Source: a virus. From it: a stretch of 64,000 bases of DNA. Under the pieces are notes generated by a model. The model ran no database searches and was not told the origin of the DNA. It worked only from the letters and a program-made list of their open reading frames with translations. Position numbers and translations under genes: made by a program. This document shows positions 11,209-21,498 of this stretch, piece after piece. Each line of letters begins with the position of its first letter. Within the stretch, counting starts at the first letter, position 1. The DNA lies in IMG/VR virus record IMGVR_UViG_3300045974_000283, positions 1 through 64,000 of that record; one strand, given 5' to 3'.

Positions 11209-12339
11209 ATGAACGCACCTAGCACCCGCCCCGTCTCCGCAGAACTCGGCGTTCCCTTCATCAGCCTGCTCGACTCCATTGACTCGGTCAAGATGTTCGG
11301 GCAGAAGACCTCCTTCCTGCTCCGTGGTCAGCCCGGCATTGGCAAGACCGAGATGGCCCGTCACATGGCGAAGAGCCTCGGCATGGAATGCGTCCCCATC
11401 GACTGCGGAGCGGCCGACTTGGGCGAAACGGCGTTGCCTTACATCATCGATCACGTGTCGGGCCGGAAGACCTCGGCGTTCGCACCGAACGAAAAGTTCC
11501 GCACCGAGCTCGGCAAGCCTGTCGTCATCCTGCTCGACGAGATCGGCAAGGCGAATCCCATCACGCTGCCGATTTTCACGACCCTGATGCAGGAACGTCG
11601 CGTTGGCGACACGCCGCTGCCCGACGGCAACATCGTGATCGGCTGCACGAACTTCGACCAAGACGGTCTGGGTGATGTCCTGCCCGCACACGTTGACAAC
11701 CGCTGCATCACGCTCTACCTGAAGAACCCGACGGCGCGTGAGTGGAATATGTGGGCGGAATCGGCTGACATCGCTGCCGACATCCGCGGCTTTGCCGAGA
11801 CGTACCCGTCGATCTTCGATCTGTACCTGCTCGACGACGTCGCCAACCAGAACCGCTACATCTTCAATCCGCGCATCAACCGCACTCGTGGCTTTGTGTC
11901 GCCACGTTCGCTGGTCATGTGCGATGATATTGCGAAGGCATTCGTGGCGAAGCGCATCACCGCCGAACGCGCGAACTCTCTGTTCTTCGGTGCGATTGGT
12001 CCGGCCGCATCCAACGACCTGATGTCCTACATCGAACTTGGTCGTGGTCTTCCCACCAAGGAACTCATCCTGCAAGATCAGGATACAGCGCTCGACATGG
12101 TTCGCGTTGCCATGATGGCGCTGCCTACGCTCTGCGCTCAACTGCCCATGCAGATCATGACCGGCATCGAGCTGGACAAGATCGTCGAGTTCTTCCAAGC
12201 GTTGAACCAAGCTGAGGCAACGCAGATGTTCGTCGAGAGCGTCATGCGGCGCCCGAGTCTGGCAGTGCCACGAGCTCAGTCCAGACGCTATGCTGCGCTC
12301 ATCCGCGAGCTGGCGATCCTTTCGCAACCCATCCGCTAA
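11209..12339 (+). CDS. MoxR-like AAA+ ATPase
   Basis: Walker A GQPGIGKT, Walker B VILLDEIGK, sensor-I GCTN, Arg finger DNRC, SPRS motif. Confidence 0.88.
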   Translation: MNAPSTRPVSAELGVPFISLLDSIDSVKMFGQKTSFLLRGQPGIGKTEMARHMAKSLGMECVPIDCGAADLGETALPYIIDHVSGRKTSAFAPNEKFRTELGKPVVILLDEIGKANPITLPIFTTLMQERRVGDTPLPDGNIVIGCTNFDQDGLGDVLPAHVDNRCITLYLKNPTAREWNMWAESADIAADIRGFAETYPSIFDLYLLDDVANQNRYIFNPRINRTRGFVSPRSLVMCDDIAKAFVAKRITAERANSLFFGAIGPAASNDLMSYIELGRGLPTKELILQDQDTALDMVRVAMMALPTLCAQLPMQIMTGIELDKIVEFFQALNQAEATQMFVESVMRRPSLAVPRAQSRRYAALIRELAILSQPIR

Positions 12340-12349
12340 GGAACCCATC

Positions 12350-13594
12350 ATGGCAACCGACACCCGCACTGAGCGGGCGGTCCTTCTGATTCGGAAGGCT
12401 CGTCTCGAACTCGTCAGGGATTCCCTGACCCGTCCGATCAGCACGTTGCTGATCTCACTCGTCCACGATGTGACCCCGGATAACGGCATCGTGGACACGG
12501 CCCGGACCAATCTGATTCGCGTGACCTACAACGCGGCTTTCATCAACAAGGCTCACTTGGATAACGGAACGAACGGCCAGAAGGTCGTGAACTTCATTGT
12601 GGCCCACGAAGCCATCCACGCGGCTTTCTTGCACCCGATTGCCAAAGCCGGAGTCTCGGATCGTCCGCTGTGGCCTATGGCAGCGGACATCTTCGTGAAC
12701 AACTTCCTGCGCGAGATCGACTCTCAGCAGAAAGTCATCATGCAGCCGCCAACCTTTGGCGTTCAACCGATACGGTCGTTTAAGGGCTGGTCTGTTGTTC
12801 AGATTCTTCGCAAACTGGAAGAGATGTTCGGCGAGGGCAGCGGTCCAACGGACTTGCCACACGCTGATCACGAGTTCCTTGACAAGGACGCCCGAAAAGC
12901 GCAGGATGCTCAGAAGCGCGGGATGCAGAACGCCCTCGGCAACCTGAAGGCTCAACTGGCGCAGCGCGGCTCCTTGAGCATGGAGCAGAACCTGATGTTC
13001 GAGAACGGTCAGGCCACCGTGGACTGGAGAGGGGTCTTCAAGAACGCGGTCAACGACGCGGTGGGTCGTGGCATCGATCACGCCATCTGGACAAGACCGC
13101 ATCGTCGGATGTTCGCAGCCGGGGTCTTGCTGCCGCGAGCTGTTGGATCATCGCCGAAGCGGGTCGTGCTGATCGCTGATACTTCGGGTTCGTTCGTCCC
13201 GCGTCTGGACGACGTCTGTGCCAACTTGGCATCCCTGGGCGCTCATGTTCAAGTCAGCGAAGCCATCGTGCTATGGACAGAGACCAAGGTCACCTCGGTG
13301 CAGAAGCTGACCCCTGCTCAACTGTCGAACGCGGCGGCGCACCTGAAGCCTGTCGGCGGTGGCGGCACGGACATGCGAGCCGGGTTCTTCTGGTGTCAAG
13401 AGGAAGCCAAGAAAGGAATGGATATCGGGCTCATCGTTTGTCTGACCGACGGTGAAACCCCTTGGCCCCAAAAGCCCGTTCTGGGCAAAGACGGCAAGGC
13501 CATTCCGTCCGTGTTCCTTTGCTGGGATCGCACACCCAATCATCAGAAGACCTTCGGCAACCCGCCATTCGGCGTCACCATCGACTGTGAGTAA
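12350..13594 (+). CDS. HExxH metallopeptidase-like + VWA domain protein (DUF2201-like)
   Basis: VAHEAIH...ADIFVN in the N-terminal half; MIDAS elements DTSGS, GGGTDM and LTDGET in the C-terminal half. Confidence 0.85.
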   Translation: MATDTRTERAVLLIRKARLELVRDSLTRPISTLLISLVHDVTPDNGIVDTARTNLIRVTYNAAFINKAHLDNGTNGQKVVNFIVAHEAIHAAFLHPIAKAGVSDRPLWPMAADIFVNNFLREIDSQQKVIMQPPTFGVQPIRSFKGWSVVQILRKLEEMFGEGSGPTDLPHADHEFLDKDARKAQDAQKRGMQNALGNLKAQLAQRGSLSMEQNLMFENGQATVDWRGVFKNAVNDAVGRGIDHAIWTRPHRRMFAAGVLLPRAVGSSPKRVVLIADTSGSFVPRLDDVCANLASLGAHVQVSEAIVLWTETKVTSVQKLTPAQLSNAAAHLKPVGGGGTDMRAGFFWCQEEAKKGMDIGLIVCLTDGETPWPQKPVLGKDGKAIPSVFLCWDRTPNHQKTFGNPPFGVTIDCE

Positions 13595-13597
13595 ATC

Positions 13598-14314
13598 ATG
13601 AACGCACCCGCACAAGAAAGCTTCGGGCTTTTCGGCATCCTCTACACGACGCGCAAGTCAGATACTGACCCGCGTGATACCCTGAACGTCAAGGGCGTCA
13701 TCTACGAGCACGACTTCGCGTCAAGCTATGGAACGCTCGACGGCCGAGCTGGCCTGCAAGAGTCCATCCACCGGCTGGCACTAGGACCCTCTGTGTTACG
13801 TCTAAGTGCCGCCGAGGTCTACTACGGATTCCTGGAATCGCCCTTCATGAAAGAGATGGCGACGCGGCCAAAAGCGTGGAGTTCTTCTTACTTCGGGCCG
13901 ATATCAACTGTGAACGCCGATATGTCGGCCCGTCTGCTGGACCAGATTCTGATCATGGACCAAGACGGCCACGATACTCTGCAAAAGAGAGTCAACGGGA
14001 AACAGATCGGTGGCGACCAGATCGGTGGTGACCACGGCTTTGGGTTCAGTATCAAATCTCCGACGGGAACCTGGATTTCCATATACCTTATGGAGCTGCT
14101 CACGACGGTGAAACCGACTCGTATGAATCAGCGCGAGTGGCTGAAGAATACTGTCGTGGTTCAGCCTGCCCTGAATGCTCTATATTCTCCTGATATGCTG
14201 AATACTCTGGAGATCAGTTCGCGTGCCTCCGATATGTCAGTTCCATCGGTGAATCCAACGCTGCATCGGCAAGAATGTATTGAGGCGGCGCACGACCTGT
14301 TTTCGGGGTTGTAA
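13598..14314 (+). CDS. hypothetical protein
   Basis: 238-aa ORF closing the AAA/VWA unit. Confidence 0.7.
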   Translation: MNAPAQESFGLFGILYTTRKSDTDPRDTLNVKGVIYEHDFASSYGTLDGRAGLQESIHRLALGPSVLRLSAAEVYYGFLESPFMKEMATRPKAWSSSYFGPISTVNADMSARLLDQILIMDQDGHDTLQKRVNGKQIGGDQIGGDHGFGFSIKSPTGTWISIYLMELLTTVKPTRMNQREWLKNTVVVQPALNALYSPDMLNTLEISSRASDMSVPSVNPTLHRQECIEAAHDLFSGL

Positions 14315-14321
14315 ATAATAC

Positions 14322-14350
14322 TTGCGGCCCCCTTAATTCTGTGTTATAAT
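14322..14350 (+). promoter_or_regulatory. sigma70-like promoter heading the 14.4-21.5 kb operon
   Basis: TTGCGG (14322-14327), 17-nt spacer, TATAAT (14345-14350). Confidence 0.75.
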
Positions 14351-14430: not shown

Positions 14431-14790
14431 ATGCCACTCGGCCTCCTACCCGCTGAACGCGCTGCACTCATCGAAGCCATCGAATTGGCTTATCCAGGCA
14501 AGGTCATTCTTCTGGACCCGACAACCGAAGACCTCGCCGCTGTAAACCCACACGCGATCCGTCTTGTCTTCGAGACGCGTCAGCGCGCTCAGGGCTTCAT
14601 CGTGGTCTACTGCAAGTTCAATCCGATGGAAGACATCGTCGGTCTGTTCAATACGCTGACCCGCAAGTTCGGGTCGTCTTTGGGCAAAGCCCCGATCGTC
14701 CGAGCGGCTCGCGGCGAGGCCATTGCGGTCGTCCCCTACGATGTCAAGTTGCAGCATGGCTGGCTCTTCATCAACGCCGACCTTCTCTAA
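14431..14790 (+). CDS. hypothetical protein
   Basis: AAGGA RBS. Confidence 0.75.
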   Translation: MPLGLLPAERAALIEAIELAYPGKVILLDPTTEDLAAVNPHAIRLVFETRQRAQGFIVVYCKFNPMEDIVGLFNTLTRKFGSSLGKAPIVRAARGEAIAVVPYDVKLQHGWLFINADLL

Positions 14791-14800
14791 GGAGACAACC

Positions 14801-15226
14801 ATGAGCGACCTCTACTCAAGCGGCCCGGTCAGCACTCTGCCCGGAGCCGTTCGCCCTGTCGAGCAGGGAGACACTTGCGACAACGACTGGCACCTGCACG
14901 ACGGGGAGACCCGTCCGGCGGTCCACCGCGTTCAGGGCGAAACAGACAGCATGGGCGCTGAGTATTTCTACGCCTGCGCCGGATGCTACGCCAAGATGCT
15001 CAGCGAGCTCGCGGCCGAGAAGGCGACGCCCAAAACCTGCGATTGGTGCAAGAAGGTGACCACCGATTGCATTCCGCACCGCGACCAAGATGAGGGCTCG
15101 TGCGGCCCGGTCTACTCGGTCTGCTCTGCCTGCCGCACCAAGGAAAACCTCGCCGCTCTAGAAGAGCTGGAACTCAACCGCACCGAGGGCGACTGGATCT
15201 CTGACCTGATGGACGAGGACGACTGA
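14801..15226 (+). CDS. Cys-rich Zn-finger protein
   Basis: AAGGAG RBS; CAGC, CDWC and CSAC pairs plus extra Cys/His; acidic C-terminus. Confidence 0.7.
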   Translation: MSDLYSSGPVSTLPGAVRPVEQGDTCDNDWHLHDGETRPAVHRVQGETDSMGAEYFYACAGCYAKMLSELAAEKATPKTCDWCKKVTTDCIPHRDQDEGSCGPVYSVCSACRTKENLAALEELELNRTEGDWISDLMDEDD

Positions 15227-15227
15227 C

Positions 15228-15437
15228 ATGAAAAGCCAACACCGCATCTGTGCAGAAATGCACCTGCAATTCAACCCGGCGGAAACGCGAACGGTCGATC
15301 AGTTGGAGGCGTACTATCGCAGCCTCTCCATGTCGAGCCCGTTCGCCCCGCTCGTTCAAGCCTTCAAGGAAGCGGACGCGCAAGCGATCGCCGAGTTCGA
15401 AGCATCCGTCGCCATCAACAACGCCCGCAAGGGCTAA
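15228..15437 (+). CDS. small hypothetical protein
   Basis: Starts 1 nt after the upstream stop. Confidence 0.65.
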   Translation: MKSQHRICAEMHLQFNPAETRTVDQLEAYYRSLSMSSPFAPLVQAFKEADAQAIAEFEASVAINNARKG

Positions 15438-15446
15438 GGAACCATC

Positions 15447-16016
15447 ATGCTCCATTCCGACTACCGTCCGCTCGTGTCTGTCGATCTCCCGTTTCAGGGT
15501 CGCCAGATGTACATGCACACGTTCGATCTGGCAAACCCGGTCATGGCCCCGGGATTCGAAGACTACCTGGAACCCGTGCGCGCTCTCTGCCACGCGGCCG
15601 GAGCCGTCGTCGGTGAAGCCCATATGACCGTGGACGAAAAGGTCATCCAACCGGGTCGTTCGCAGCGTCGCCCAAAACCGCACGTTGACGGCGTCTTCGT
15701 CATCGCCTCGATGAATTGGGGCCACGGTGGCGGGTGGAACCACGGATGCAACAATATCGGCGCGGGTCCTGTTCGTCGGATGCCTGTCATCGTGGCAGCA
15801 TCAGCGATCGGCTGTCGTGTCTGGCGCGGCACGTTCAACGCGATACCTGCTGCCGACGGCGACCTGTCCCACCTGAGCCTGCCCGAAGGCGAGATCGTCC
15901 CCGCCAACATGGGCTTCCTGCTCAACGGCGACTGCGTCCACGAGTCGCTGATACAGCCTGTCGCGGCGCAGCGCACCTTCCTGCGAATCGCGCTTCCCGT
16001 CAACTTCCCGTTCTGA
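15447..16016 (+). CDS. putative 2OG-Fe(II) dioxygenase
   Basis: HxD (PHVDG), distal His (CVHES) and C-terminal RTFLRI match the facial triad and 2-oxoglutarate-binding Arg. Confidence 0.65.
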   Translation: MLHSDYRPLVSVDLPFQGRQMYMHTFDLANPVMAPGFEDYLEPVRALCHAAGAVVGEAHMTVDEKVIQPGRSQRRPKPHVDGVFVIASMNWGHGGGWNHGCNNIGAGPVRRMPVIVAASAIGCRVWRGTFNAIPAADGDLSHLSLPEGEIVPANMGFLLNGDCVHESLIQPVAAQRTFLRIALPVNFPF

Positions 16017-16037
16017 CTTCGTCACTAAGGATTCATC

Positions 16038-19000
16038 ATGTCGAACCCTGACCAATCTCTAGGCGAGATACTCTCAGCCGCAGCCGAGATATTCTTGCCG
16101 GGCTCCACCACGACTGCGGTGACGGTGCAGGTCCCCACTCCGGCACAGAACAACCTCAAGCTCCAGACGGACCTGAACACCGGACGCCTGTCGCGCGCTG
16201 TCCCGCCTAAGCCTTGGCCGGGCGAAGAGCCGAAGACCCAAAACCGCAAGGCGCGGAAACTTGTCATGAAGACCTACGACGACGAAGAAACCAATGAGGA
16301 ATCCGAAGATGACGGAGAAAAGCTTCTTCGGAAGCTCCCAGCCAAGAGCAAATCGTACACTGAGTTGGAGGCAGAGAAGGCGGCAGCGGGCATCCAGAAG
16401 AACCCGAAAGTCGGTTTCAAGTCCTTCACCGATACCCTGGAAATGGCTCGGGAGCAGAGTCTTGTCAAAGCGCGGCCTTTGCCAGAATGGACGCAAGCGT
16501 TCAACGTGAACGCGCATCACGACGATGCGTTCTATCCGATTCTGGTGGACCTTCGCTCCGAGCGCACCCTGAGCGAGATCACCAAGAAGCTGGAAGAACA
16601 ACGGCTGAATGAGGAGAACCGGAACCGCCCGCGTCTGTTCCTGTCCGCCTTCAATGAGACTGGAGCTGCGCGCGAAGTTCACCTTGACGGGCTGCTCAAC
16701 GCGTCGAATCGACTCAGCTTCTTGACGGCTTCCGTCATGAAAGGGTTCCTCATGAGCCCAATCTCACGCGCAGAGCTCGACTACCTGTATGAGGAAGTCG
16801 TTCACAAGTTCGGGATGGATACGAGCTGGTTCTCCTCGACAAAAGACCCATCAGCTGTGAAGTGTTCGTTGGAAGAACGCCGCGTCGTTGAGGACCTGAT
16901 GGTGAACGTGCGATACGCACGAACGCGTTCGCGTGACCACCATCTCCACAGCATCTGCAACGATTTTGGATACAGCAACGGTGACCGTATCCGTCCTTTG
17001 CCGAAGACTTCGAAGTCGATTGAGACCCGCTCGAAGATGCTGGACTACTTCTACGAGTTCGACACGTATATCGAGATCCCGTCGTCGGTGATGTCTTGCG
17101 ATTACACCCCCGAATCGCTGTTCAATGGACGTGAAATCTGCCTCATGCCGCTCGTGTCGAACTTCAAGTCGCACTTGGCCGAAGACAAGTTGGCGACCTG
17201 CGGACCTCGTTACTCGCCTGAGTGGGAGAACCGCCGCCTCGATCAGGAAACCAGCTTTGTGGTCGTGTGGGTTCCCCGCGAGCAGTTCATCACTCCCCGC
17301 GAAGGTGCCAATCCTTTGACCGGGGTCTCGCAGTATCTGCGAGCGGGTATTGCCACGGGAGCGTTCTTACCGGAAAACGACCAGACGGCAAATCCCGTGT
17401 CGCGGGCTGACGCAGCCGCTTTCATCGAGAAAGTTTACTCCGAAAACGTGTCTTGGACCCGGCGTCTCAACTTCGAGCTGGAAGGCGTGAATGTCATCAA
17501 GGACATGGCCGACACCATGCTCCCCGAGGAGATTGGATTGTTGCAGGAGAATGTGACGACGAAACCGTTCCTGTTCGTGGACTGTGGCGCGCTGGACCCA
17601 ATCGTGCAATCCTTTGGGGCGGAGTTCTGCGCCCTGTTCAACTCGCCGGTGCGCGATCGCACTTTCCCGATGTACTTCAACCGCTCAACGACGAACGACG
17701 ATCATCGGAAGAAACGGAACGTGGTGTTCCCGATCCAGCCCCTCCGAGACTACGTCTACCGCAACGACGGCATGTTGAAAATTTCGTGGAAGACCTATCA
17801 AGACAACGATACGAGCAAAGGCTACACGGAAGTCGAGGATGAACTCGTCCGGAGCCTTGGCATCAAGAGTACGGATGAGGTCAAGACCGAGAATACTTTC
17901 AACCTTGACGCGTGGACGGCTTCCTTCGATGATCCGTGCTTCGACGTGGAGCACGTCGTGTTCATCGACGACCACCACCGTCAAGACCGACTCAGTGCAA
18001 TCCGGGCGGCGCTGGGATCGGTCGGTGTCACCTTCGACCCCGAAATCCTGTTGGACTTCCTTGTTCGCGTGTGCATCGGCAGCGCCCCGGACTTTCTGAT
18101 AGCGTTCACCGGGCGAAACGCTGGAGTGCAGAGCTTTGACTACTTGCTGAGGCACTACTTTGCAGGAAACCTCACGGCTCCAAAATCGGTTGGATCCTTC
18201 TTGCACATGATCGGTCGAAGGGGGTTAGCTGACAACCAAGACCGTGCTCGGGGTCTGGCGCTGATTGAAGCTGTCGAGGCCCTGCCGCGGTCCGCGGGTT
18301 TGGTGGATCCGACCGCCATCCTGTCTCCCGGTGAGTGTGCCGTCAATCCGCTGAACACCGTTGGTATGAGCCCCCGCAAGGGTAAGCCTGCTCCAGCGGC
18401 GAAGAAGAAACCACGGCCCCGCGACGATGAGGACGATGAAGAGGAAGAAGAGGAAGAATCCAAAAAGGATGACGATGAAGAGGACGAAAACTTCCAAGAG
18501 ACACCCGCAACGGAGCGCGTTCTCCGCGAAACCCGGAATGACGATCAGGATGACAAGGAAAAACTCCGTGCGGAATACCTGGACCTGCTCTCTTTGCTTT
18601 CTCAGCAAGACCAGACGTCTAAGCTCGGCTGTCTTGTCTCGGCCGAGCGCCGCAATCTCGTCGTGGCAGCAGGCATCGAGAACGTGAGTGAGTTTGCCTA
18701 CATGAAAACTGGCGACTCGATCTATTCAAATCTGTTCACTGCTCAAAACCTGGACTACGAACGGGTGTCAGTGATCAACCGGGCAACGGCGACCAAGCTG
18801 TCAGCGTCCAGCAAGAAAGCGCAGGAACGGCTTTTGGCGGGATCCAAGGATCAGCTGTCTACATCAGAAACCGTTTCCAAGCGGGTGAAAACCGCTGCCG
18901 AAACCCTGCGCGCCTTGGAGCAAGCGCGAGGTGAAGTGCGCAAGCAAATGGAACGGTATCAGGTTCACCTTGAGGACCTGCGCGAGGGCATCCTGATACG

Positions 19001-19985
19001 GTCGGGTCGCTCATTGCGAATCTTCACGCCGGAGAAACTTCGCAAGGAGCTTGAGGCGTTCCCGTTCATCCAGTCGCTTCGGGTGGTCGGTGACACCGTC
19101 TACTTGGTGATGCAGCCCGCAATCGTTACGCTGGAATCCGCTGAAGCATTCTGGGAAGTCAAGCGTGTCCAGGGATACGGCGAGTTCGTCGAAAAGTGGG
19201 CGGCGGCAGTTCAAAGCTCCTGGCCCTGCGGGAGTGCTGAAAAGGCGGCGATTCAGAAGGTGATCCTGAAAAGCGAACAGTTCAAGCATCTTGCCACCAA
19301 GTACGGCACTCGTCTCCCGGACGAGAAGATCCACATAGCGGACCGGGATGACGAGGTTCATCGGTTCCTTCAGCTGGCAATTCGCGACGCGGGTTTCCAG
19401 CGGTATGTACCGGCGATGAGCATGGGACTCACGGTGAAGGACGTTTATGAGAAGTCCGACACCACGAATCCGGTCAAGCTGTCCATGTTCGGAATAGGAG
19501 TGGGCATCCGGGACTTCGAGGAGAGTCATGCCGAGCAGCTGAACGAGCTCAAGCTGTCACCAGAAATCTACGGAGTTCTTGAACCTCTATACACGAAGTG
19601 GCGAAACACCCTTCAACCCAAGGTCACCGGATCATCAAGCAAGAAGATGGACGCCCTGGAAAGTTGGAAAGAGGAATACCAGAAACTGAAAAGCACTCCG
19701 TACGGTTCCATCATTTCAACCGAGCTGACGACGGCAGGCTTCGACAGGTTCGTTCAGGGCAAGCCGCTCACGCCTCACCTCAAGATCAGTGGCAACTCCT
19801 GCTGGTCCTCTTTCAAGGACGCCATCAATCTGTCGCTGCGAAAACGTCGTCATCTGGAAGCCATGCTTTTGTGCCGGGACTTCTTCACCTCTGCCACTGA
19901 TAACGTGACGGGTATCCCGGGCTTGCTGGAAATGCCCACAAAGGAACCGTCAATCAAGTTCGTCTCAAACCGCGTCAGCTTCTAA
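16038..19985 (+). CDS. 1315-aa multidomain protein with C-terminal E2 (UBC)-like module
   Basis: AAGGA RBS. Acidic tract and coiled coil precede PLTPHLKISGNSCWSSFKDAINLSL...LCRDFFTSA (Cys1255), resembling the prokaryotic E2 PH-x-x-x-G-x-x-C signature. Directly upstream of E1 and Ubl genes. Confidence 0.62.
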   Translation: MSNPDQSLGEILSAAAEIFLPGSTTTAVTVQVPTPAQNNLKLQTDLNTGRLSRAVPPKPWPGEEPKTQNRKARKLVMKTYDDEETNEESEDDGEKLLRKLPAKSKSYTELEAEKAAAGIQKNPKVGFKSFTDTLEMAREQSLVKARPLPEWTQAFNVNAHHDDAFYPILVDLRSERTLSEITKKLEEQRLNEENRNRPRLFLSAFNETGAAREVHLDGLLNASNRLSFLTASVMKGFLMSPISRAELDYLYEEVVHKFGMDTSWFSSTKDPSAVKCSLEERRVVEDLMVNVRYARTRSRDHHLHSICNDFGYSNGDRIRPLPKTSKSIETRSKMLDYFYEFDTYIEIPSSVMSCDYTPESLFNGREICLMPLVSNFKSHLAEDKLATCGPRYSPEWENRRLDQETSFVVVWVPREQFITPREGANPLTGVSQYLRAGIATGAFLPENDQTANPVSRADAAAFIEKVYSENVSWTRRLNFELEGVNVIKDMADTMLPEEIGLLQENVTTKPFLFVDCGALDPIVQSFGAEFCALFNSPVRDRTFPMYFNRSTTNDDHRKKRNVVFPIQPLRDYVYRNDGMLKISWKTYQDNDTSKGYTEVEDELVRSLGIKSTDEVKTENTFNLDAWTASFDDPCFDVEHVVFIDDHHRQDRLSAIRAALGSVGVTFDPEILLDFLVRVCIGSAPDFLIAFTGRNAGVQSFDYLLRHYFAGNLTAPKSVGSFLHMIGRRGLADNQDRARGLALIEAVEALPRSAGLVDPTAILSPGECAVNPLNTVGMSPRKGKPAPAAKKKPRPRDDEDDEEEEEEESKKDDDEEDENFQETPATERVLRETRNDDQDDKEKLRAEYLDLLSLLSQQDQTSKLGCLVSAERRNLVVAAGIENVSEFAYMKTGDSIYSNLFTAQNLDYERVSVINRATATKLSASSKKAQERLLAGSKDQLSTSETVSKRVKTAAETLRALEQARGEVRKQMERYQVHLEDLREGILIRSGRSLRIFTPEKLRKELEAFPFIQSLRVVGDTVYLVMQPAIVTLESAEAFWEVKRVQGYGEFVEKWAAAVQSSWPCGSAEKAAIQKVILKSEQFKHLATKYGTRLPDEKIHIADRDDEVHRFLQLAIRDAGFQRYVPAMSMGLTVKDVYEKSDTTNPVKLSMFGIGVGIRDFEESHAEQLNELKLSPEIYGVLEPLYTKWRNTLQPKVTGSSSKKMDALESWKEEYQKLKSTPYGSIISTELTTAGFDRFVQGKPLTPHLKISGNSCWSSFKDAINLSLRKRRHLEAMLLCRDFFTSATDNVTGIPGLLEMPTKEPSIKFVSNRVSF

Positions 19986-19994
19986 GGAACCAAC

Positions 19995-20702
19995 ATGGAC
20001 CTCACTCGTCACCGCTATGTTTTCGATCCCGCTCAGTTCAACGACAGGCAGCTCACTGTCGCGGTCATCGGGGCGGGCGCCCTCGGCTCTCAGGTGGCAC
20101 TGCACCTGAGCAAGCTCGGCCTCGACCGCGTCTATGTCATCGACGACGATCAAGTCGAGGGTCACAACCTACCGAATCAGCTGACCTACGGGGAAGACGA
20201 CATCGGCAAGTACAAAGCCGTGGCTTTGGCAAATCGCCTGAATCTACTGCGAGGCGGTTCCGACTTCGGTGCGGATGTCGTTTGGCCTGTCGTGCGTCGT
20301 GCTCCGATCGGATACGTGGCGGAAGCCGCCGCTGTCTTCGTCTGCGTGGACAGCATGAAGGCGCGGAAGGAAATCGCGGATTTCGCGTTCACCAACTGCC
20401 CACCTAGTACCCTGTTAATAGATGGTAGGATCGGTGCCTATACCGGTTCTGCCCTGATATCACGTGTCGGGCTGGAAAACGAAGTCGAGGGCTACAGGCA
20501 AACCCTGTACTCCGATTCCGATGTCCAGCCCGACACGGGTAGCTGTGGGGAGACCCTCAGCATCGGAGCCACTGCGAGCATCATCGCGGCGCAGATGGTC
20601 TGGCTGTTCATGCAGCGTTTCTCAACCGCCGAAATCCCTCGGCATGTCAACGAAGTGATCTTTTCCGTCAACCCCTGGAGCCTCATGGCTCGTTCTTTCT
20701 GA
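19995..20702 (+). CDS. ThiF/MoeB-family E1-like activating enzyme
   Basis: VIGAGALGS nucleotide-binding loop, DDDQVEGHNLPNQ, GKYKA, VCVDSMKAR, IDGR; candidate catalytic Cys184 (GSCG). No CxxC zinc pairs. Confidence 0.92.
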   Translation: MDLTRHRYVFDPAQFNDRQLTVAVIGAGALGSQVALHLSKLGLDRVYVIDDDQVEGHNLPNQLTYGEDDIGKYKAVALANRLNLLRGGSDFGADVVWPVVRRAPIGYVAEAAAVFVCVDSMKARKEIADFAFTNCPPSTLLIDGRIGAYTGSALISRVGLENEVEGYRQTLYSDSDVQPDTGSCGETLSIGATASIIAAQMVWLFMQRFSTAEIPRHVNEVIFSVNPWSLMARSF

Positions 20703-20711
20703 AAGCAAACC

Positions 20712-21455
20712 ATGTCCAAAATCAACGTCACGTTCCGTTCCGCCCTCGGCTCTGTCTTCACCGCTGCGGTGGATGCGGGCACCTCCCTCCGTCAGGCTTT
20801 CAATCAGGCTGTCGGCAAGACCTACGGTGCCATCGACCACCAAGAAATCACGGCTGAAGGCGCGAAGGTCAGCAAGGAGAAGAAGCTGAGCGCCGACCTC
20901 GAAGTCGCCGTCGTCCTGAAGGGCGAAACGGCCCCTGTCGCCAGCTCGGCGACTCCGGCGAACACGGAAACCGCAAGCGATTCCGTCGCTGAAAGCACCA
21001 CGACCACGGAGACCTCCAATGCCAACACCGCAGACACCGCACAAAGCGCCACCGAAGGCACCGCCACCGATGCCGTCCAAGGATCAGCCGAACAGGCCGC
21101 AGAAGGCACCACCGAAACCGCGAACGCTCAACCGGCCGAGGGCGTGAAGGCCGAGACCGAGACGGCTTCTGTCGCCTCGGCTTCCGGCATCGAGGCGGTT
21201 CCAGTCGGCACGGCTCCGGTTGTCGAGAAGGTCAGCGTGACCTTCAAGGGCATGGGCTCCGGCCGTGGTTCGCCCGACATCATCGTGCAGCGCAACAAGG
21301 GCACGCCGCTGTCTGAGTTCCTGACTGAGTCTTCGCTCGTGTCTGTGTCCAAGGGCAAGCGCTTCTTCGACCAGACCAACAAGTCGATCCCGGTCGGCAT
21401 GTTGATCCAGGCGAACATGGCGCTGTCGGCACGGGCCGCGTCATCCGGCGGCTGA
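20712..21455 (+). CDS. tandem ubiquitin-like (beta-grasp) protein ending in Gly-Gly
   Basis: N-domain KINVTFRSALGSVFTAAVDAGTSLRQAF and C-domain KVSVTFKGMG...NKGTPLSEFL share a strand-strand-helix pattern. They are joined by an approximately 100-aa T/A/E/S linker; the C-terminus is ASSGG-stop. Confidence 0.78.
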   Translation: MSKINVTFRSALGSVFTAAVDAGTSLRQAFNQAVGKTYGAIDHQEITAEGAKVSKEKKLSADLEVAVVLKGETAPVASSATPANTETASDSVAESTTTTETSNANTADTAQSATEGTATDAVQGSAEQAAEGTTETANAQPAEGVKAETETASVASASGIEAVPVGTAPVVEKVSVTFKGMGSGRGSPDIIVQRNKGTPLSEFLTESSLVSVSKGKRFFDQTNKSIPVGMLIQANMALSARAASSGG

Positions 21456-21474
21456 TCGTTCGGTAGTTCGTCAC

Positions 21475-21498
21475 GAGGGTCCGCGATCGCGGACCCTC
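21475..21498 (+). terminator. 24-bp perfect palindrome, probable operon terminator
   Basis: GAGGGTCCGCGATCGCGGACCCTC followed by TTCCCTCTTC. Confidence 0.6.

Follow-up and report, generated by a model that had tools for sequence, protein, structure and literature searches.

So far, the ubiquitin-like conjugation characterised in bacteria serves the host as a weapon against phages: the cascades of ubiquitin-like proteins (Ubls) known as Bil and as Cap2 of CBASS (cyclic-oligonucleotide-based antiphage signalling system), and probably Bub, act in anti-phage immunity (PMC11601596, PMC11601603). Bil encodes its Ubl, its conjugating enzyme (E2) and its activating enzyme (E1) as separate genes, the Ubl often having at least two beta-grasp domains; no ligase (E3) is encoded, and the E2 has been proposed to pick its targets directly (PMC11601596, PMC11601603). 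Bub works through oxyester intermediates on serines, with E2-E1 or Ubl-E2 fusions and a DUF6527 serine protease; type II Bub is usually without a JAB peptidase, and multi-domain Ubls occur (PMC11601596). Here we analyse three genes at positions 16038-21455 of a 64,000-nt stretch of viral DNA (the window), which makes up the first 64 kb of the 177,837-bp IMG/VR record IMGVR_UViG_3300045974_000283. We consider it reasonably probable that they form a phage-encoded ubiquitin-like conjugation cascade without a peptidase.

If true, a cascade owned by a phage would reverse the current picture and add protein tagging to the means of phage takeover and counter-defence. Among prokaryotes and their viruses it would be the first ubiquitin-type modification system to belong to a virus, in a peptidase-free, irreversible variant whose two-domain tag sits on a long flexible tether. 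We found no paper on a phage-encoded E1/E2/Ubl cascade, in agreement with an earlier note on this DNA, made from the sequence alone, which knew of no characterised phage-borne system of this layout. The paper describing the PhiXhv jumbo phages, which carry a related gene set, never mentions thiamine or ubiquitin (PMC13340338), and a 2026 review of jumbo phages never mentions ubiquitin or ThiF.

Layout of the cassette and comparison with described systems

The three genes are co-oriented and separated by spacers of 9 nt each, which contain purine-rich stretches resembling ribosome-binding sites; the open reading frames match exactly the arrangement given in the earlier note. We count the three-gene layout and the translational coupling as points for a conjugation cascade. 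The features of the cassette are:

16038-19985, + strand: 1315-aa orphan protein P0001 (open reading frame), from N- to C-terminus a conserved region of ~790 aa, a low-complexity acidic tract, a coiled coil and an E2-like core
18864-18983, + strand: predicted coiled-coil helix of P0001, aa 943-982, before the E2-like core (AlphaFold2 helix, per-residue confidence pLDDT 63-84)
19023-19904, + strand: putative E2/RWD-like core of P0001, aa 996-1289, split by two helical insertions of ~90 aa each
19770-19802, + strand: TPH motif, aa 1245-1247, and candidate catalytic Cys1255 (codon 19800-19802) of P0001
19995-20702, + strand: 235-aa ThiF-family E1, P0002 (open reading frame and Pfam)
20712-21455, + strand: 247-aa Ubl, P0003, with an SSGG-stop end (open reading frame)

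The window has a G+C content of 55-63%. The tail sheath of the record shares 34-36% identity with its counterparts in the jumbo myoviruses Ralstonia phiRSL1, Achromobacter Motura and Burkholderia BcepSaruman/BcepSauron, and 27% with the sheath of the 227-kb Xanthomonas/Erwinia phages PhiXhv-12 and Ep032. Because of the identities to jumbo myoviruses, the carrier is, judged by its sheath, a jumbo tailed phage; its host is probably a proteobacterium.

With Bil (BilABCD, types I and II) the cassette shares the separate Ubl, E2 and E1 genes, a double beta-grasp Ubl and the lack of an E3. Its E1, however, is one domain of 235 aa, whereas that of Bil is multi-domain, with an inactive and an active adenylation domain and a Cys domain; two inserts split its E2-like core, which is located at the C-terminal end of a 1315-aa protein; neither its E2 nor its Ubl is matched by a PADLOC model; and it is carried by a jumbo phage of virulent type, not by a bacterium. 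The cassette also differs from Bil in having no JAB (BilC) within 178 kb. Specifically, the Pfam model Prok-JAB has no match in the whole 178-kb record, which is ~74% complete, and a hidden Markov model (HMM) built from the JABs of six relatives gave a best E-value of 3.1 over all of its frames. What had been noticed earlier as the absence of a JAB nearby thus holds across the record. The absent peptidase suggests that the phage does not reverse the tagging.

The compact E1 without a separate Cys domain and the multi-domain Ubl are reminiscent of Bub (6E/DUF6527), of which type II is JAB-poor as well. In contrast to Bub, both candidate catalytic residues of the cassette are invariant cysteines and its genes are separate; a Pfam scan of the neighbouring genes gave no match to DUF6527. 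Separate genes also distinguish it from Cap2 of type II CBASS, an E2-E1 fusion beside a CD-NTase, and no nucleotidyltransferase family was matched among the scanned neighbours. The single-domain E1 of ~240 aa, its crossover-loop Cys and the GG-ending beta-grasp partner are all features of the ThiF/ThiS, MoeB/MoaD and SAMP/UbaA pairs, but the cassette departs from ThiF/ThiS and MoeB/MoaD in that the equivalog models score far under their cut-offs, sulfur-donor enzymes are missing and an E2-like partner is conserved. Finally, P0002 resembles the ThiF protein of the PRTRC cassette of plasmids and integrative and conjugative elements (NCBIfam TIGR03734-03742), matching PRTRC_ThiF (TIGR03736) at E 1.4e-13, but its 50.7 bits fall short of the cut-off of 144.75, and no PRTRC model matches P0001, P0003 or their relatives. 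Neither PRTRC nor Prok-E2 models match the E2-like proteins; the Prok-E2 families were reportedly defined by Burroughs et al. in Mol Biosyst in 2011. By their defining features, as far as sequence can tell, the cassette is not Bil, Bub, Cap2 or PRTRC.

Its closest counterparts are found in other phages. In every phage locus with a related E1 (we covered the E2-like and E1 genes of L003, L006, L007, L009, L010, L011, L017, FpV4 and PhiXhv-12), the gene just before the E1, or before the JAB where one precedes the E1, encodes a coiled coil followed by a core with the Cys-bearing motif described below. The loci come in two forms. Smaller phages have the order Ubl, E2-like, JAB, E1, as in the IMG/VR contigs L007, L009, L010, L011 and L017 and in the Flavobacterium FpV4 group, whereas jumbo phages have no JAB and a Ubl that stops at GG, as in the window, L003, L006 and cultured Xanthomonas and Erwinia phages. 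Co-occurrence of the set in independent phage lineages was likewise counted for the conjugation cascade.

The JAB-bearing cassettes have an E1 of the same clade, with the same ten invariant residues, an E2-like protein of the same family, in which a coiled coil is followed by the HPH...C(L/F/W)G core, and a small beta-grasp Ubl that ends in Gly. For example, the Ubl of L011 has 72 aa and ends in VGG, while that of L010 matches the ThiS family PF02597 at 2e-7. FpV4 (L012:1640-5651) encodes a Ubl whose SGG is internal and has a 200-aa tail behind it (gp53), an E2-like protein (gp52), a JAB with the motif HIHSH...SGTD (gp51) and a ThiF protein (gp50). The set of the window differs from these in lacking the JAB and the C-terminal Ubl extension that some of them have (FpV4 gp53), and in an E2-like protein two to three times larger. 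The FpV4 cassette is located between genes for uracil-DNA glycosylase and exonuclease VIII, and the phages concerned are 88-kb members of Fipvunavirus.

In PhiXhv-12 (L001:5808-9684, positions 140252-144128 of the phage record), a 140-aa protein ending KASGG-stop lies directly before an 892-aa E2-like gene, which is followed by the E1. The three genes occupy positions 140252-140674 (Ubl), 140754-143432 (E2-like) and 143445-144128 (E1) of that record. The 140-aa protein has a T/A/E/S-rich N-terminus and a beta-grasp-like end, and the ends of the 892-aa protein are Cys-rich. The set also occurs in PhiXhv-15, PhiXhv-16, Ep026 and Erwinia Ep032. Public records call the E1 homologues 'thiamine biosynthesis protein', and nothing in the PhiXhv set is labelled ubiquitin-like. 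Since isolated Xanthomonas and Erwinia jumbo phages carry this unannotated JAB-less set, bench experiments can test the idea of a conjugation cascade directly. The form found in jumbo phages, with no JAB, a giant E2-like fusion and a tethered di-Ubl, is a distinct variant. Further searches for loci in IMG/VR, with the E1 on its own, the A3 profile or the L010 and L007 E1s as queries, brought nothing new.

The E1, the ubiquitin-like protein and the E2-like core

P0002 matches Pfam ThiF (PF00899) over residues 18-212 with an E-value of 1.1e-24 and 87.4 bits against a cut-off of 28.1, which makes its assignment as a ThiF-family E1 firm at the level of sequence. It consists of the single ThiF domain, without a multi-domain E1 architecture. 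The nearest PDB sequences are MccB, ThiF, BubCD, PaaA, Uba1, NEDD8 E1 and Cap2, with MccB at the top (2.6e-9) and Citrobacter BubCD at 1.8e-6, and the Cap2-type E1-E2 models of PADLOC match at 2e-13, over the adenylation half only. No NCBIfam equivalog reaches its cut-off; the ThiF model TIGR02356 scores 75.5 bits against 275, and the MoeB models are also far under theirs. We saw no CxxC zinc motifs in the sequence. In an alignment of the ten phage E1s gathered in this analysis, which are 23-40% identical, the invariant positions are G26, G28, D50, N58, Q62, K74, D119, R124, R145 and C184. The GxGxxG loop lies at aa 26-31, and the features of the adenylation family (nucleotide loop, acidic ribose residue, Lys and Mg-binding Asp) are present as G26, G28, D50, K74 and D119. 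Cys184 (codon 20544-20546), for which the earlier note had proposed a catalytic role, is presumably placed like the crossover-loop Cys of ThiF and MoeB, and its invariance in the ten E1s leaves it a candidate for the thioester-forming residue.

The AlphaFold2 model of P0003, built from a 3-row alignment, has two beta-beta-alpha-beta-beta units, aa 2-69 and 172-247 (pLDDT about 57-80), joined by a disordered, T/A/E/S-rich linker of ~100 aa (aa 70-171). The model and a fold search support well the earlier description of a double beta-grasp Ubl, and the SSGG-stop end, with its exposed Gly-Gly, is read directly. The AASSGG tail is kept in the L003 homologue, and a GG-type tail is conserved in L003, L006 and L001 (PhiXhv-12). 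As encoded, the Ubl is mature from the outset, its Gly-Gly end being free. The last Arg of P0003 lies six residues before the C-terminus, and trypsin would therefore leave AASSGG, not the usual di-Gly, on a modified lysine. Comparison with the L003 homologue (L003:10885-11607) gives an identity of 84% for the N-terminal beta-grasp and of 45% for the C-terminal domain that bears the GG. Since the N-terminal domain is better conserved than the conjugating domain, it suggests itself as the functional payload or a binding surface.

P0001 is more difficult to place, with no match in Pfam, PHROGs, PADLOC or NCBIfam and a single homologue, P0007 (33% identity, E 1.6e-137), among 1.84 billion representative proteins. 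Megablast and tblastn searches with the region and with P0001 against 50,697 phage records found nothing, and word-indexed homologue searches with the P0001 C-terminus and with the compact homologue P0008 returned only the queries. Two compact E2-like proteins likewise found nothing by tblastn against phages, which indicates that the family diverges very fast. Ten E2-like sequences were collected as neighbours of phage E1s, by walking out from the E1. The column of Cys1255 is invariant in alignments of 6, 8 and 10 of these sequences and is the sole invariant column in the last, where the motif reads [H/T/Q]-P-[H/Y]...C-[L/F/W/I]. Conservation of this Cys had been named in the earlier note as a test that could refute an E2, and the residue proved invariant in every homologue or analogue found. 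The stretch TPHLKISGNSCW...LCRDFFTSA, with which that note had the protein end, is present at aa 1245-1287, but sits ~30 aa before the C-terminus. The coiled coil before the core recurs in P0006, P0008 and P0011.

A profile of six compact members, compared with all PDB sequences, gave 11 matches at E<=10, all 11 of them UBC E2 enzymes (best E 0.082). In these alignments the HPN motif of the E2s is matched by HPH, their catalytic Cys by the conserved Cys, and their LLxxPNP helix by the helix that comes next. P0001 and P0007 are linked to the compact family by hhalign through two collinear local matches with ~90-aa inserts between them, one covering helix-strand-strand (P 0.0017) and the other the motif, the Cys and the helix (P 0.0065). 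The ESM Atlas model of P0008 has among its structural neighbours the mostly viral Pfam Prok-E2_D cluster (template-modelling score, TM, 0.49), and E2 or RWD folds make up most of the structure matches that extend over the two halves of the core. P0006 has a weak Pfam match to Knl1_RWD_C (E 0.15). The curated E2 models (UQ_con, Prok-E2_A to E, RWD, UEV) gave nothing at E<=1 for P0001 or P0007. At the same threshold, the E2 models of Pfam gave nothing for P0006, P0008, P0011 and the L009 and L010 proteins, and those of NCBIfam nothing for P0006, P0008, P0011, the L009, L010 and L011 proteins and FpV4 gp52. In a 10-row profile the E2 signal was diluted to E 1.4, and the AlphaFold2 model of P0001 aa 930-1315, from a 6-row alignment, was poor, and the Foldseek comparison suggested in the earlier note returned no match. 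No line of evidence for an E2 is significant singly, but together they all point one way. We consider it probable, though not proven, that the C-terminus of P0001 is a UBC/RWD-like E2 core with Cys1255 as its catalytic residue. The E2-like fusion of the earlier note thus survives in the agreement of motif and Cys, profile, hhalign and fold neighbours, each of them sub-threshold.

Some observations on the family stand apart from this argument. A profile that included the coiled coil drew in haemagglutinin and other coiled coils and was discarded, and an Atlas feature search on the N-terminal 680 aa of P0001 found nothing. A JAMM-like string in P0001 (HLHS...SNGD, ~aa 301-315) is absent from P0007 and was taken as chance. 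The E2-like proteins L009:3160-4467, L010:3786-4916, L011:3201-4625 and L001:6310-8988 have dense Cys-rich C-terminal tracts of CxxC type, which could represent zinc fingers or E3 modules of RING type joined to the E2; Pfam RING models do not match the L009, L010 and L001 proteins, and the L011 protein, scanned against NCBIfam only, had no match either. The L011 protein reads H-P-C-W-G, with the Cys straight after HP; Atg3 and Atg10 have an HPC motif.

Proposed mechanism and alternatives

A conjugation cascade built from these parts would start with the E1, presumed to be a homodimer like ThiF and MoeB, adenylating Gly247 of the Ubl. The Ubl would then probably be taken onto the crossover-loop Cys184 as a thioester, be passed to Cys1255 in the E2-like core of P0001, and finally be transferred to lysines of target proteins. 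The coiled coil and the ~790-aa N-terminal region of P0001 could serve as a scaffold or substrate selector, so that P0001 would combine the functions of E2 and E3. With a conserved sigma70-type promoter and a place beside genes of replication and early type, the system would probably act early or mid infection, on host proteins or on non-structural proteins of the phage. Such a cascade would be mechanistically unusual: its E1 is as small as an E1 can be, it has no peptidase for deconjugation, its E2-like core is embedded in a protein of 1315 aa, and in its di-beta-grasp tag the N-terminal domain is more conserved than the conjugating one. That virulent jumbo phages run their own Ubl conjugation, with the giant E2/substrate adaptor tagging host or phage proteins for takeover or for the blunting of defences, is possible, and we put it forward tentatively. 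The roles suggested in the earlier note, namely that the cassette could tag host proteins, modify proteins of the phage itself or be a decoy for host Bil/CBASS ligases, are likewise hypothetical.

Several points weigh against a cascade of this kind. P0002 lacks the canonical Arg of NLxRQ, reading HNLPNQ where the aligned MccB has NLTRQ, and none of the ten phage E1s has Arg at this position, which is occupied by N, C, T or G. P0001 has Thr where its relatives carry the first His of HPH, and it combines the lack of a library match with a single homologue and a poor AlphaFold2 model. No target, E3 or deconjugating enzyme is known for the cassette, and the record that holds it is only ~74% complete (CheckV). 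In one alternative the E1 conjugates alone, as in the E2-independent SAMP/UbaA and TtuB/TtuC types, and P0001, its core an RWD/UEV-like fold without catalysis, serves as scaffold or regulator or is itself the main substrate. The evidence for an E2 fold is sub-threshold, the matched folds include many non-catalytic RWD domains, and minimal single-domain E1s such as P0002 are typical of the E2-less archaeal and bacterial systems (SAMP, TtuB). However, a Cys at the E2 catalytic position after an HPN-like motif is invariant in ten very divergent proteins, which non-catalytic RWD or UEV domains would have no reason to retain, and the PDB sequences matched by the profile are catalytic E2s, aligned at their active site. 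We consider E2-independent conjugation unlikely.

If the chemistry is the same, the purpose could still be another: a Bil-like defence or exclusion system, tagging the proteins of competing phages rather than serving host takeover or the phage's own development. This would be in line with the characterised bacterial cascades, which act in anti-phage immunity, and with the patchy occurrence of the cassette, since a patchy distribution is typical of accessory conflict genes and the sheath relatives phiRSL1, Motura and BcepSauron are not among the results of the E1 search of phage records. But the carriers are virulent, the cassette has a promoter of host type and is surrounded by genes of early and replication functions, and PADLOC has no Bil match for the E2 or the Ubl, so we give exclusion a low probability. 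The PhiXhv jumbo phages are predicted to be 100% virulent (PMC13340338). The two remaining alternatives do without conjugation. A ThiS/MoaD-type sulfur carrier, whose adenylated GG becomes a thiocarboxylate for thiolation of a cofactor, tRNA or DNA bases, is brought to mind by ThiF and MoeB, which are among the best NCBIfam and PDB relatives of the E1, and by the thiamine label in public records. It is very unlikely given that the ThiF and MoeB models stay far under their cut-offs (e.g. 75 bits vs 275), that neither a rhodanese domain nor a cysteine desulfurase (Aminotran_5) was found in the 178-kb record, that the E1 has no visible CxxC zinc motifs, that the obligatory partner is an E2-like Cys protein, with JAB peptidases in relatives, and that sulfur carriers do not resemble a Ubl made of two domains and a disordered 100-aa linker. 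Least probable of all, and in our view hardly credible, is an adenylase like MccB or PaaA that chemically modifies the GG C-terminus by nucleotidylation or cyclisation. MccB is indeed the top PDB match of the E1, and PaaA is also matched, but only the generic nucleotide-binding half aligns; MccB carries an N-terminal peptide-clamp domain, for which the 235-aa E1 is too short, and the substrate here is a folded two-domain beta-grasp protein, not a short peptide.

Transcription unit and neighbouring genes

The cassette probably belongs to a transcription unit that spans 14431-21455 and includes four small upstream genes. Its further features are:

14322-14350, + strand: sigma70-like promoter, TTGCGG, 17 nt, TG-extended TATAAT (read from the sequence)
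14431-16016, + strand: four small genes of about 119, 135-167, 69 and 189 aa (open reading frames, same unit)
21475-21498, + strand: perfect palindrome of 24 nt with a T/C-rich tract behind it, probably the intrinsic terminator at the end of the unit

The earlier note had the operon start at a sigma70-like promoter and end at a palindrome, and both elements are present as read. The promoter lies upstream of the unit, separated from it by a 116-nt gap. Its -35 element has only 3 of 6 consensus matches, which is why a consensus scanner did not list it. The sequence TGNTATAAT occurs once in the 64-kb window against 0.15 expected, and 15 of 100 shuffled sequences also had one occurrence. The element is kept in the diverged relative L003, whose proteins are 33-69% identical and which has TTGCGG-17-TACAAT at the equivalent place. 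At the position of the palindrome L003 has a different GC-rich hairpin followed by a T-run; this is the pattern expected for a genuine terminator, and we consider the palindrome a probable one.

The surroundings of the cassette are genes of replication or early type, not virion genes, with a MoxR-like AAA gene and a DUF2201 gene upstream in the window, ligase and topoisomerase genes in PhiXhv-12 and primase, uracil-DNA glycosylase and exonuclease genes in FpV4. Together with the host-type promoter, this neighbourhood suggests that the cassette is expressed early or mid infection.

The four small upstream genes have no Pfam match, and their PHROG matches are restricted to the families phrog_15864 and phrog_8970 of unknown function; three of the four have counterparts in L003. 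The gene at 14723-15226 is listed with a TTG start that overlaps the preceding gene by 68 nt. Because its PHROG match begins only at residue 32, the true start is probably further downstream.

A terminator-like hairpin with a 10-bp stem (14305-14331) overlaps the -35 region of the promoter, and one short intergenic region seems, from its sequence, both to end an AAA/DUF2201 block and to start the Ubl block. The former block, just upstream at 11209-13594, encodes a MoxR-like AAA_5 ATPase and a DUF2201 protein (metallopeptidase-like plus VWA-like), and this pair is kept at the same position in L003.

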